Below are positions 377-56,102 of a stretch of 64,000 nt of DNA, one piece after another. Positions within the stretch are counted from its first letter, which is position 1. Each line of letters begins with the position of its first letter. Where the stretch lies: IMG/VR virus record IMGVR_UViG_3300032092_001856. One strand, written 5' to 3'. The notes below the pieces were generated by a model, which was not told the DNA's origin, made no database searches, and was given only the letters and a program-made list of their open reading frames with translations. Source of the DNA: an uncultured virus (IMG/VR IMGVR_UViG_3300032092_001856) (taxonomy: Duplodnaviria > Heunggongvirae > Uroviricota > Caudoviricetes). Position numbers and translations under genes: made by a program.

Positions 377-734
377 TTACGGCTGCTTTGATGGCATCTT
401 CAGCCAATATGCTACAATGTATTTTAACTGGGGGTAAGGCTAATTCTTCGGCGATTTCGGAGTTTTTAATTGATCCTGCTTCGTCGAGAGTTTTTCCTTT
501 GACCCATTCTGTAATGAGGCTCGAGCTTGCGATAGCCGATCCGCAGCCATACGTTTTAAAACGTGCATCTGTAATAATACCTGTATCATCATCTACCTTT
601 ATTTGTAGTTTCATCAGGTCTCCGCACGCCGGAGCTCCCACTAATCCTGTACCTACATTTTCTTCGTCTTTAGAAAAACTTCCCGCATTTCTAGGATTTT
701 CATAATGATCTAAAACTTTTGCGCTATAGGCCAT
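348..734 (-). CDS. iscU: Fe-S cluster scaffold IscU
   Basis: DHYENPRN, GAPACGD, GCGSAIAS and LPPVKIHC motifs; AGGAGG RBS. Confidence 0.97.
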   Translation of the reverse strand: MAYSAKVLDHYENPRNAGSFSKDEENVGTGLVGAPACGDLMKLQIKVDDDTGIITDARFKTYGCGSAIASSSLITEWVKGKTLDEAGSIKNSEIAEELALPPVKIHCSILAEDAIKAAVNDYRNRHSK

Positions 735-1323
735 AATGACCTCCTGTAATTAATTTTACCACTTCGACAGTTTGATAACTATCCCACTTTTTTCTATTCT
801 CTTCACCTTTAATAAATTGTATATTCTTTTTACTACCGAGTACAGAGGGATCTATACCTAACTCAAAACCTTGTCTGTGCGGAATAATATGATCAATTTG
901 CCAACTGTCTTTATACTTACCTGTTTTCGGAACCCATTCACCGGCTTCTTTCATTTCTTTAAGAGTCCTGTATGTGTGATACCGAACTTTACTACGATAT
1001 AGTTTGAGAGGTTCTGTAATTGGATTCTTTGGACGCAGATTGTTTAATTTACCATCCTTGTTAGGATTATTAGTAATAAAACGATGCCGGGCTATTTCAT
1101 TGGTGCCGCCTTTGTTCCATCCCCACCCCTTGCTAAGTCCAACGGTATTTTGTTTTGCTTTTTGTTCTTCTGTAAGTTTAATACCTTTATTCCAAGGATC
1201 ATACTCTCCCCTATTGAGAGGATTTTTACATTTTTGCGAACAATAATCTAAAAATCTAGGTCTAGTTATAAAACTAGATTCACAAAAAAGGCACACCTTA
1301 CTTAACCCATACTTGTTTTTCAT
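724..1323 (-). mobile_element. free-standing HNH-type homing endonuclease
   Basis: N-terminal CxxC...CSxxC, WNKG (NUMOD-like) motifs, IDHIIP...N...EN HNH-like core; sits between two copies of the iscU start. Confidence 0.75.
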
Positions 1324-1328
1324 ACAAG

Positions 1329-1335
1329 TATTTAT
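1329..1335 (-). promoter_or_regulatory. T4-like late promoter (ATAAATA) for the HNH gene
   Basis: TAAATA 5 nt upstream of the ATG at 1323; the motif recurs before many genes in the window. Confidence 0.6.
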
Positions 1336-1348
1336 CTAGGCGTGCCCG

Positions 1349-1375
1349 TTAGTGTGTTTTGTCTGAGTAGGCCAT
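1349..1375 (-). pseudogene. orphaned 5' stub of iscU (MAYSDKTH*)
   Basis: ATGGCCTACTCAGACAAA versus the functional start ATGGCCTATAGCGCAAAA (MAYSAK). Confidence 0.75.
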
Positions 1376-1449
1376 TATTTCTTTTTCTTAAGAACTCTGC
1401 GAGCAGTAGCTTTTACTGAACGCGGATGATGTGCTTTAAATTTTGCCAT
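1375..1449 (-). CDS. 24-aa highly basic peptide
   Basis: MAKFKAHHPRSVKATARRVLKKKK; AAGGA RBS; TAATG overlap with the iscU stub. Confidence 0.6.
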   Translation of the reverse strand: MAKFKAHHPRSVKATARRVLKKKK

Positions 1450-1817: not shown

Positions 1818-2018
1818 TTACTTACCTGCAGATTCTTTTCGAGCGTTCTTAACGGCTGTTACATCGTTACGAACTTCTTTACATAGTTTGGCAAGTTCTT
1901 GTAAGTGTTTACGTACACGAGTACCTGCGGCACCTACTTCTTTGTCGTAGAATTTTTCGAAGTCTCCTTCCATTGATTCTACTAATTTTGCGAAATCTTG
2001 AAATCTATTTGCTGACAT
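1818..2018 (-). CDS. Hc1 / histone H1-like small helical protein
   Basis: DFEKFYDK..AAGTRVRKHLQELAKLCKEVR motif; start at MSANR with AGGAG RBS. Confidence 0.75.
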   Translation of the reverse strand: MSANRFQDFAKLVESMEGDFEKFYDKEVGAAGTRVRKHLQELAKLCKEVRNDVTAVKNARKESAGK

Positions 2019-54727: not shown

Positions 54728-55593
54728 GCTAATCCCCAACTTCCTTCGCTCTTACGAGCTTGTAAATCAAATCCATTTTTGCACTGCGATTTAGGACATG
54801 CTCTAGGGCCAGTATCTAACGACACAGTCTGTGCAAATATATTTCCCATAGGAGCATGGCTCTTACACCAGCCTCTCCATACATCGCCAAAGTTATCAAT
54901 TACAATCTGTGTTACTCCGGCCCAACAAAGATGTCCAAAATAATTGTTTAAATGATTAACTCTTTTAAACTCTATAGTAGATTCTACTTGTTGCTTATTA
55001 TATATGTCAATTCCTTGCGCTGTATAATATTCATTCCATTGTTCTTTAGAATAGTTTAGGTATTTGTTATTGCCTTTGGTAAAATTGTCGTATAAGAACT
55101 GTAGTTGAACATTTACATTTTTATGTTTAAGAATGTTATAACATTCGTGTTGTTTTGCCCAGTTTTCAGGAGTCACTGCAACATAGACTGTAGAGTTTAT
55201 ATGCTTGTTAACAGCGTTCACAACATTTAAAAAATGATCAAAGTCTTCTGTAGCATGATAGGTAAGAGATAGATCATACAGGTTAGGAGCCATGTGTGTC
55301 CACTGCTCTATACTGGCTTGGCCGTTAGATATTAATTTAAACTTAATTCTAGAATCTTTGTTAGATAGAATAACGTATTGTAAGGCTAGACTAAGTGTAG
55401 GTTCGCCACCATTGACATCTATTCTAACATTAGAGAACGCCTGACTTTGATCAACTAAGTGAGCAAATGCCAGGCTGAGTTTGTCATGGTCCGGAAATAA
55501 GTTATTACCTGCTTTTAATTCCCAACTGCAGTAGGAACAATCTAAGTTACAACTATTGCCAAGACTCCATTCTATTTGTAGTGTATCCGTCAC
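54724..55593 (-). CDS. radical SAM protein with C-terminal twitch/SPASM-like cysteines
   Basis: CNLDCSYC, GGEPT, CWAG...C...C...C. Confidence 0.88.
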   Translation of the reverse strand: MTDTLQIEWSLGNSCNLDCSYCSWELKAGNNLFPDHDKLSLAFAHLVDQSQAFSNVRIDVNGGEPTLSLALQYVILSNKDSRIKFKLISNGQASIEQWTHMAPNLYDLSLTYHATEDFDHFLNVVNAVNKHINSTVYVAVTPENWAKQHECYNILKHKNVNVQLQFLYDNFTKGNNKYLNYSKEQWNEYYTAQGIDIYNKQQVESTIEFKRVNHLNNYFGHLCWAGVTQIVIDNFGDVWRGWCKSHAPMGNIFAQTVSLDTGPRACPKSQCKNGFDLQARKSEGSWGLA

Positions 55594-56102
55594 CTTAAGT
55601 ACTCAAGCCATTCACTATGCCTTACTTGAAAAGGCATTGCTTTACGCTTATTTACTAGTTCGTAGAAGCTGGGCTTGTGTGGCTTAAACTTAGGAACAAT
55701 CTTTTTATTATTACCTTTGCTGGCATTGCAGGGACCGCAGGCGGTAACACAGTTTTCAAATGTAGTCTTACCACCTAGACTGGTTGGTAGTACATGATCT
55801 AATGTACAGTGTTTCTTTTCTAGATTGCAGCCACAATAGGCACAGTGATAGTTGTCACGCAGAAATACATTGCTTTTACTAAATCGAATAGCTATTTTAG
55901 GTTTCATGTACTCTTTGAGAATAACAATACTAGGTACAGCAGTTTCCCAGCGAGCTGATCTTACAATCCAATTATCGTGCCAAGCTAATACTGTGGCTTT
56001 ATCTAAGACCATGTATTTGATTGCGTCCTGCCAAGTAATTGTACTAAGCGGCAGAAAGCTGACTGGTGCGCCGGTGGCGTTGAGTAATAGCGTATCTGAC
56101 AT
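55590..56102 (-). CDS. HNH endonuclease (McrA-like)
   Basis: RDNYHCAYC...TLDHV.P...GG...N...CGPCN..K. Confidence 0.9.
   Translation of the reverse strand: MSDTLLLNATGAPVSFLPLSTITWQDAIKYMVLDKATVLAWHDNWIVRSARWETAVPSIVILKEYMKPKIAIRFSKSNVFLRDNYHCAYCGCNLEKKHCTLDHVLPTSLGGKTTFENCVTACGPCNASKGNNKKIVPKFKPHKPSFYELVNKRKAMPFQVRHSEWLEYLR

Follow-up and report, generated by a model that had tools for sequence, protein, structure and literature searches.

The window analysed here is a stretch of 64,000 nucleotides (nt) from an uncultured tailed phage (Caudoviricetes; IMG/VR record IMGVR_UViG_3300032092_001856), in which a gene for an HNH-type endonuclease lies directly upstream of a phage iscU gene. All genes of the iscU region are on the minus strand. 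A basic peptide gene of 24 amino acids (1449-1375, encoding MAKFKAHHPRSVKATARRVLKKKK), the resident upstream neighbour of iscU, ends in a TAATG overlap between its stop codon and the ATG of an iscU stub, ATG GCC TAC TCA GAC AAA ACA CAC TAA (MAYSDKTH*, 1375-1349), made up of six resident codons, two cassette codons and a stop. The mobile segment begins on its left with the cassette leader (34 nt, 1357-1324), in which the motif TAAATA (1334-1329) stops 5 nt short of the ATG of the HNH gene. This gene (1323-724) encodes 199 amino acids with an N-terminal four-cysteine finger, NUMOD3-like repeats and a C-terminal DH...N...N motif. The working iscU gene (734-348, 128 codons) starts with ATG GCC TAT AGC GCA AAA (MAYSAK), its ATG lying 11 nt inside the HNH open reading frame (ORF); its ribosome-binding site, AGGAGG (745-740), is encoded in the 3' end of the HNH gene, 5 nt before that ATG. 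The gene that follows is iscA (376-50; Pfam Fe-S_biosyn, E = 3.1e-16). A preliminary description made from the sequence had already reported the coupled stub and the second start with its ribosome-binding site inside the HNH gene, and it was correct apart from a one-base shift, the stub having been placed at 1374-1348.

The window iscU product is a full-length NifU_N protein (Pfam PF01592, 183.9 bits with the cut-off at 22; residues 2-126), and the motifs GAPACGD, YGCGS and IHCS are all found in its translation. We take the functional residues of the IscU scaffold to be its three cysteine ligands plus Asp39.

As regards the HNH protein, D144, H145, N167 and N176, together with the four N-terminal cysteines, were invariant in all 27 aligned relatives; in an HNH motif, an Asp-His general base is followed by Asn and then Asn or His metal ligands. 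The Pfam HNH profile (PF01844) matched 12 of 27 relatives at E≤0.1 (best 0.0014), whereas HNH_4 matched two, HNH_5 one and NUMOD3 three. An AlphaFold2 model reached a mean predicted local distance difference test score (pLDDT) of 77.6, with 10-residue block means of 77-95 in the C-terminal domain (residues 101-199). The best VIA-align match of the model was the Gme HNH nicking endonuclease (4h9d; Z 4.9, 68 residues aligned, root mean square deviation 5.2), followed by 8w1p (Z 3.7), T5 SciA (9qgx, Z 3.6) and the GVE2 HNH (5h0o, Z 3.6), and four of the six top matches are described as HNH nucleases. Protein language-model neighbours fell in clusters with 17-100% PF01844 members (cosine 0.88-0.92), a similarity that serves as a lead only. 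The sole PHROG match was phrog_5104, of unknown function (E = 1.9e-9). The iscU-linked protein is probably a member of the HNH nucleases. A second HNH endonuclease gene is present in the window (55590-56102, minus strand; phrog_16726, E = 2.4e-30), and hhalign detected no kinship between the two (probability 1%).

The tract replaced at the start of iscU

Viral contigs were scanned for the junction between the peptide-gene stop and the stub, which rendered seven loci. Two of them (L159 and L163) had the arrangement of the window, three (L160-L162) were more distant sisters devoid of the HNH, and the other two (L164 and L165) were near-isogenic with the window and HNH-free. The upstream flank of the window (2883-1384) was identical to L165 at 1498 of 1500 bases, and the downstream part (540-1) to L164 at 538 of 540. 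Both L164 and L165 lacked the HNH and showed the order peptide-TAATG-iscU, with an iscU that opened with the exact 18 bases of the stub and continued as GTA GTC GAC. Given this 18/18 identity, the likeness of the stub to an iscU start is not due to chance. Relatives without the HNH had been expected to read peptide-TAATG-MAYSDKV..., and this was the case for L164 and L165 and also for L039, L070, L072 and L081, the four loci with the same TAATG-coupled peptide gene among the best 80 of at least 600 stretches, ranked by match to the window iscU and thus not a random sample. None of the six contained the stub. These results support the interpretation of the locus as the product of an HNH invasion.

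The differences between the window iscU and that of L164 were unevenly distributed, with 6 in nt 1-18 and 38 in nt 19-120 (44 in nt 1-120), against three in nt 121-387, of which the last is at nt 145 and the other two are at nt 141 and 144. Since the load is concentrated in nt 1-120 and the gene is of the resident type beyond that point, the event was a replacement. Judging from these alignments, the incoming block is 743-768 bp long (window 1357 to 615-590) and comprises the leader, the HNH gene and nt 1-120 of a donor iscU, the resident nt 19-120 having been lost. The donor-derived part, a HomR-like replacement segment, occupies 734-615; the zone of the right-hand junction, in which the three further differences fall after the last clustered one at nt 120, covers 614-590; and the resident 3' part (589-348) equals L164 from nt 146 to the end.

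In agreement with this, nt 1-120 of the window iscU were 89% identical to L040, 84% to L058 and 67-69% to resident-type alleles, and nt 124-381 were 87-90% identical to the HNH-free sisters. Informative-site tests, with L040 as the donor-like reference and five resident-like references, placed the break at nt 118-121 in four comparisons and at nt 132-135 in the fifth. Around 30 sites to the left of the break were donor-type, compared with 1-3 of the resident type, and the reverse was observed on the right (p from 4e-5 to 1.6e-3). Immediately past the codons for Cys37-Gly38-Asp39-Leu40 comes the right junction, which is homologous. At the left junction, nt 18 of the resident iscU is joined straight to the leader with no shared homology, and therefore six resident codons were stranded as a dead stub running into a stop. 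The proposed insertion after codon 6 thus proved exact for the left junction but not as a simple insertion, because resident nt 19-120 are deleted. Similarly, rescue of iscU by an unspliced second start was borne out, while the idea that the cassette duplicates the start only had to be replaced by one in which it brings nt 1-120 of a donor gene.

Both forms of the locus were found in a single public DNA run (X3), where one contig spans 531-1387 with zero differences to the window and another departs from it at 1358, continuing, as judged by eye, as nt 19-48 of the L164 iscU. Three contigs of an RNA-library run (X16) depart from the window at 614 into consensus-type Cys37 sequence. Presence and absence of the HNH at one site among near-identical genomes was therefore seen in L164 and L165 and within run X3, and a co-conversion tract between the HNH gene and the proposed cleavage site was seen in iscU itself, donor-type in nt 1-120 and resident-type in the rest. 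Contig joints at 407/601 and 1814/1909 in public runs were unrelated to the HNH locus.

The donor-like reference L040 (3001-3387) is itself HNH-free, its first 120 nt being those with 89% identity to the cassette part of the window, and its site reads GDLL. It may be either a lineage in which the endonuclease was lost and the immune tract kept or the source lineage of the tract.

The cassette family and the Cys37 codons

The HNH was present in only two of the best 80 iscU loci (L058 and L060). A separate scan with the HNH protein rendered 75 homologue loci with 50-100% amino acid identity, many of the family loci being near-duplicates from different metagenomes. In 71 of the 75, iscU lay directly downstream, and the other four ended before that point; the HNH was single-copy in all five long records searched. 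The family was thus found at one target locus across diverged hosts. With the exception of L147 and L148, the HNH loci compared share a homologous leader of approximately 34-38 nt ahead of the HNH start codon, and the sequence upstream of the leader differs by HNH lineage.

The length of the iscU stub was 18 nt in the window, about 22 nt in L113-L115, about 25 nt in L111, 33 nt in L091-L094 and 36 nt in L121, and many other HNH lineages were stub-less, the stop of the upstream gene abutting the leader. This variation indicates that the stub is not part of the element. It is the scar of a left junction formed anew each time that a genome with a different upstream neighbour was invaded.

The right-hand boundaries of several cassette pairs lay within 9-30 nt of the Cys37 site. 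The pairs L116/L117 and L106/L107 showed no differences in iscU nt 1-114 and 1-111, respectively, and the remainders were 72-78% identical; their first differences occurred 11-20 nt past the Gly38 region, and those of other close pairs 9-29 nt past it. Remnants of the HNH were observed at 11 loci, nine of which keep the last 33-40 HNH codons directly 5' of the iscU ATG (e.g., L149 and L153), and the HNH ORF was broken at two loci (L119 and L127). The family shows the familiar cycle in which invasion is followed by decay and loss. Taken with the replaced tract, these comparative data make it probable that the window HNH is a free-standing homing-endonuclease cassette, belonging to a family confined to the 5' end of phage iscU.

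In L058, a gene for a monothiol-type glutaredoxin (1999-2380; Pfam Glutaredoxin, E = 3e-19) opens with the first nine codons of iscU, MAYSEKVID, and a second iscU stub of 11 codons lies between this gene and the HNH. Apparently, one gene start received two one-sided insertions in succession, and one of the two became fused in frame.

The ten codons for VGAPACGDVM, which contain Cys37, differed between loci with and without the HNH. Among the 78 HNH-free rows, 77 read VGAPACGDVM without interruption and one (L040) read VGAPACGDLL. The 62 rows with a near-full-length HNH match contained no consensus site: 40 had a short insert, nine ended in GDLM, three ended in GDLL, seven read TGSPACGDVM and three VGAPSCGDVL. 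The window and two contigs identical to it are counted among these 62, two of the loci appear in duplicate, and five further rows stop short of the site. Of the 11 rows with an HNH remnant, nine had the insert and two read TGAPACGDVM. The window site (TGC GGA GAC CTG, 626-615) has no gap and carries the change from GTN to CTG, V40L. Third codon positions of the motif vary freely in HNH-free alleles, and the simplest reading is thus of an enzyme insensitive to wobble variation, as is common among homing endonucleases, from which an allele would escape only by an insertion or a non-synonymous change. The Cys37-Leu40 codons, where the converted tract ends, may accordingly be regarded as the putative site of both cleavage and immunity, with V40L as the immune variant, and self-protection lies most likely there and not at the recoded start.

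The comparisons show that a phage that originally had the order peptide-TAATG-iscU acquired a segment of ~743-768 bp. In the mechanism that we propose as probable, the endonuclease would cut or nick an HNH-free iscU within the VGAPACGDVM codons, that is, in the loop of the Fe-S ligand Cys37, and repair of the break would be templated by a co-infecting genome carrying the HNH. The whole stretch from the cut to the HNH gene would be co-converted, and the far end would be sealed illegitimately inside the iscU start because the donor had a different upstream neighbour. The window allele would then evade its own enzyme by means of the non-synonymous V40L borne on the converted tract.

Unlike the window allele, 49 related loci showed a gap of 3-6 nt after the Gly38 codon, followed by a second GGN and then by GAY GTN. 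These loci lie in L095-L157 (e.g., L095 3156-3215, L105 3153-3215 and L130 3156-3215). Fifteen versions of take-off codon, gap and landing codon were found, with frame shifts of 0, +1 or +2, and in all but one the gap opens with TAA, TAG or TGA. The frame downstream of the gap was open to the normal end in all 44 loci long enough (86-99 codons); in two gapped loci it reached 426-428 codons, owing to an intein-like insert before Cys63. Codons after the landing GGN showed only synonymous variation, save for Met/Leu at position 41, and the two glycine codons differed at the third base in nine of the 15 versions. Two near-complete genomes (354 and 349 kb) contained no iscU copy other than the gapped one.

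The 48 nt up to the take-off codon formed the same hairpin in all 15 distinct versions, with a mean minimum free energy of -24.7 versus -11.8 for 70 distinct uninterrupted alleles and with 10.8 of 11 outer stem pairs versus 6.1. In the aligned hairpin, 96.5% of cells paired, compared with at most 42.4% when the partners were slid, and four pairs had changed on both sides (14 cells, a number reached in none of 500 shuffles); these values come from a structure derived from the same sequences on which it was scored, which favours it. The window allele has no such hairpin (6 of 11 pairs).

A hop of the peptidyl-tRNA-Gly (tRNA, transfer RNA) from GGN to GGN is a candidate that would account for all gap lengths by one mechanism, and the pattern suggests that the gapped loci use a short ribosomal hop, a miniature of that of T4 mobA/gene 60. 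We give a slightly better than even chance to the proposal that the HNH family shields the Cys37 loop in two ways, by a V40L-type substitution, as in the window, or by a stop-hop of 6-9 nt behind the hairpin, as in the 49 loci, the latter still making a normal IscU. A split protein with restart at Met41 was rejected as the general answer: position 41 is Leu in four of the 15 versions, and two of these four (L104 and L111) offer no start codon (ATG, GTG or TTG) among the 12 codons next to the landing codon. The ratio of non-synonymous to synonymous substitution rates (dN/dS) of iscU downstream of the gap was dropped as a test of function because this part is resident DNA whose divergence is older than the cassette. 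For the cassette-borne N-terminal part, dN/dS was about 0.1-0.3 on few changes, and is suggestive only.

At L108 (3209-4489) and L109 (3209-4495), iscU is also broken just before Cys63 by an insert of ~340 amino acids that begins with Cys and ends with His-Asn followed by Cys, with weak matches to Hint modules (E about 7e-4, below the cut-off). The insert resembles an intein, placed at the second Fe-S ligand; one small gene would therefore hold the HNH cassette, the gap and an intein.

Expression and surroundings of the locus

The motif TAAATA, which we take to be the consensus of T4-type late promoters, was found within 40 nt upstream of 16 of the 61 window genes, compared with ~0.8 expected. 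Its spacing fell into two classes, at about -24 and at -11/-12, the HNH belonging to the -11 class with four other genes. The copy before the HNH fits a T4-type late promoter, as judged from motif and position, and agrees with the early suggestion that this gene has a promoter of its own. A Shine-Dalgarno sequence often lies between TAAATA and the start in the -24 class and is missing from the -11/-12 class (five genes, the HNH included), a hint that mRNAs in the latter are very short or lack a leader. The 8-mer ATAAATAC was not enriched across the window (three found versus 5.0 expected).

An intron- or intein-borne arrangement was not found: TAA closes the stub, and a separate ribosome-binding site and ATG serve iscU. 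An Rfam scan of 1-2400 detected no intron, the only match being Yfr13 (24.7 bits against a gathering threshold of 39; E = 0.49). Window-identical RNA-library contigs bridged the HNH/iscU junction (X15, 636-887; X16, 682-866), others lay within the HNH gene, and no joint skipping the HNH was present in the contigs of three RNA-library runs. Since no intron was detected and the contigs are colinear, rescue takes place by a second, cassette-borne gene start and not by splicing.

Upstream of the peptide gene lies a gene for a predicted secreted protein of 101 amino acids (1765-1460, minus strand), and at 1818-2018 (minus strand) there is a 66-amino-acid protein with a match to the chlamydial Hc1 family of histone H1-like proteins (PF07432, E = 2.6e-19). 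The highly basic product of the peptide gene (1375-1449, minus strand) was 100% identical in the four diverged relatives L039, L070, L072 and L081, and the visible nucleotide differences in the last 60 nt of the gene were synonymous, as judged by eye; on this account it is a real small gene. In HNH-free phages it is TAATG-coupled to iscU.

The window is part of a large tailed phage, with PHROG matches to nrdA/nrdB, collagen-like tail fibres and a baseplate hub. The public runs that contain its sequence are labelled as freshwater, riverine, lake-water or fungus metagenomes. No tRNA genes were found in the window, and a megablast search of 1-2300 against phage records gave no match. In a tblastn search of iscU against phage records, the best match was 'Acinetobacter phage MD-2021a', which was discarded after its context proved to be a bacterial isc operon; phage C48C1 has an iscU, with no HNH annotated alongside.

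Alternative explanations and related systems

Three other explanations were weighed against a homing cassette that cleaves at the Cys37 codons. A simple insertion after codon 6, bringing a short recoded duplicate of the start that protects the allele from self-cleavage, as the preliminary description had suggested, is in accordance with the position of the left junction exactly after codon 6 and with the differences between the working start and the stub, at 5 (by eye) or 6 (in the alignment with L164) of 18 bases. We regard it as very unlikely, since the divergent tract extends beyond nt 18 to nt 120 (38 more differences), many HNH lineages are stub-less or have stubs of other lengths, and the features that track the HNH sit at the Cys37 loop; furthermore, starts of the AGC GCA type also occur in the HNH-free loci L077-L079, which speaks against self-protection by the recoded start. 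An HNH that homes to another target, the iscU start or the intergenic junction, would turn the Cys37 breakpoints into ends of repair or branch migration and the site variants into hitch-hikers. The 5' parts of cassette iscU genes are indeed related by descent, so that the association with the site does not consist of independent events. Yet at least five different changes fall in the same ten codons (V40L; A36S+M41L; V32T+A34S; V40L+M41L; and the 15 take-off/gap/landing versions), the motif is constant in 77 of 78 HNH-free loci, and the boundaries of several cassette pairs cluster by the site as described above, which leaves this explanation unlikely. That the HNH is an ordinary or domesticated immobile phage gene, such as a replication or packaging nuclease or a regulator of iscU, deleted in most relatives, we consider extremely improbable. 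HNH nucleases do have many non-homing roles, and the function of phrog_5104 is unknown. However, a deletion would leave cassette-type nt 19-120 behind, and the empty-site alleles carry the resident type common to other HNH-free phages; moreover, identical cassettes occur in diverged iscU backgrounds, and the HNH gene is found at one site only.

Some results weigh against the homing cassette as we read it. The match of the window protein to PF01844 (14.0 bits, E = 0.059) is below the cut-off of 21.4, and every VIA-align match is below Z 5. Foldseek rendered no match at E≤0.001, although HNH domains (Cas9 HNH, colicin DNases) were frequent in its weak list, and a search of the PDB with a profile of the 27 sequences gave nothing meaningful (best E 0.49, an Alba DNA-binding protein). 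The variants at the Cys37 site are possibly lineage markers and not selected immunity, because a 5' part of iscU travels with the cassette, and shared descent inflates the association. The HNH-free set consists of the closest iscU matches to the window and is not random. The RNA-library contigs are no proof of transcription, DNA carry-over being possible. Finally, an HNH-free iscU that has the consensus site and a gapped iscU linked to an HNH occur together in one record of 525 kb (G004).

The two G004 copies (139785-140165 and 410493-411468) are 63% identical in their iscU 5' parts and 93% in their 3' parts, with inverted flanks of ~80% identity. This suggests either two related genomes joined in assembly or a real duplication, the former being favoured on the sequence.

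The nearest described system to the homing cassette is that of T4 MobA and gene 39-60. According to its description by Manning and Atkins (10.1101/2022.08.31.505936), the MobA element consists of an HNH gene and an element-encoded HomR that takes the place of 55-75 nt in the host gene, with repeated independent insertions, endonuclease loss and a bypass cassette that guards against the enzyme. The window element is similar to what is told there in having a free-standing HNH gene directly 5' of a target-gene segment, in the replacement of tens of host-gene bases by a divergent homologous region (67-69% identical to the resident type in the window), in its recurrent independent insertion at one place with subsequent decay of the endonuclease, and in the 49 related iscU loci with a stop-led coding gap between glycine codons at the right end of the element. 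It differs in its target, an auxiliary Fe-S scaffold gene and not a topoisomerase. The left piece is a dead stub of eight codons, in contrast to the functional ORF1 with a conserved C-terminal extension in T4; the window iscU is a single ORF with no bypass cassette, its immunity apparently due to one amino acid change; and the gaps in its relatives measure 3-6 nt, compared with 50 in T4. Nicking in the MobA system was reportedly studied by Bonocora et al., as cited by Manning and Atkins.

A second parallel is provided by the mORFs of fungal mitochondria, in which an endonuclease ORF carries a replacement gene end and the native end is stranded, Allomyces atp6 being the case cited (Beaudet et al. 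2013, PMC3630166). As in those, a foreign gene end travels with the endonuclease ORF, the hybrid gene works and the native end is stranded with no intron or intein. The window is the mirror image, with the 5' end replaced and the native start (18 nt) stranded upstream, and its enzyme is a phage HNH, whereas the Glomus mORFs of that account encode LAGLIDADG or GIY-YIG enzymes. For free-standing T-even endonucleases (MobE and the Seg proteins), a review describes co-conversion of flanking markers and also gene-splitting cases, mobE in Aeh1 nrdA and mobA in gene 60 (PMC2988022). The window shares with MobE and Seg, as portrayed there, an intergenic gene adjoining the target, double-strand-break repair with co-conversion, and weak or unusual expression signals; those genes are usually cleanly intergenic, while in the window the far junction lies inside the start of the target gene. 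In a full-text search that did not cover other names of the protein family, no published iscU target of a phage homing endonuclease was found.

The locus offers a natural case in which invaded and empty alleles are both available, with flanks that agree to within a few bases and with both forms in one public run. It indicates that the start of a gene may be invaded with neither intron nor intein when a replacement start is carried along, the stranded start codon remaining as a scar. The targets of homing endonucleases would extend to an auxiliary metabolic gene of phages, specifically to the codons for an Fe-S ligand cysteine, and one family would have two apparent routes to immunity, a conservative amino acid change and a micro-gap that opens with a stop and follows a conserved hairpin. 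Gene callers will call such iscU genes split or broken. If true, the gapped loci would represent a natural stop-hop borne by an endonuclease, the window would hold a sister form of that element, of the substitution type, and the old puzzle of why T4 gene 60 needs its bypass would become testable in a much simpler system.

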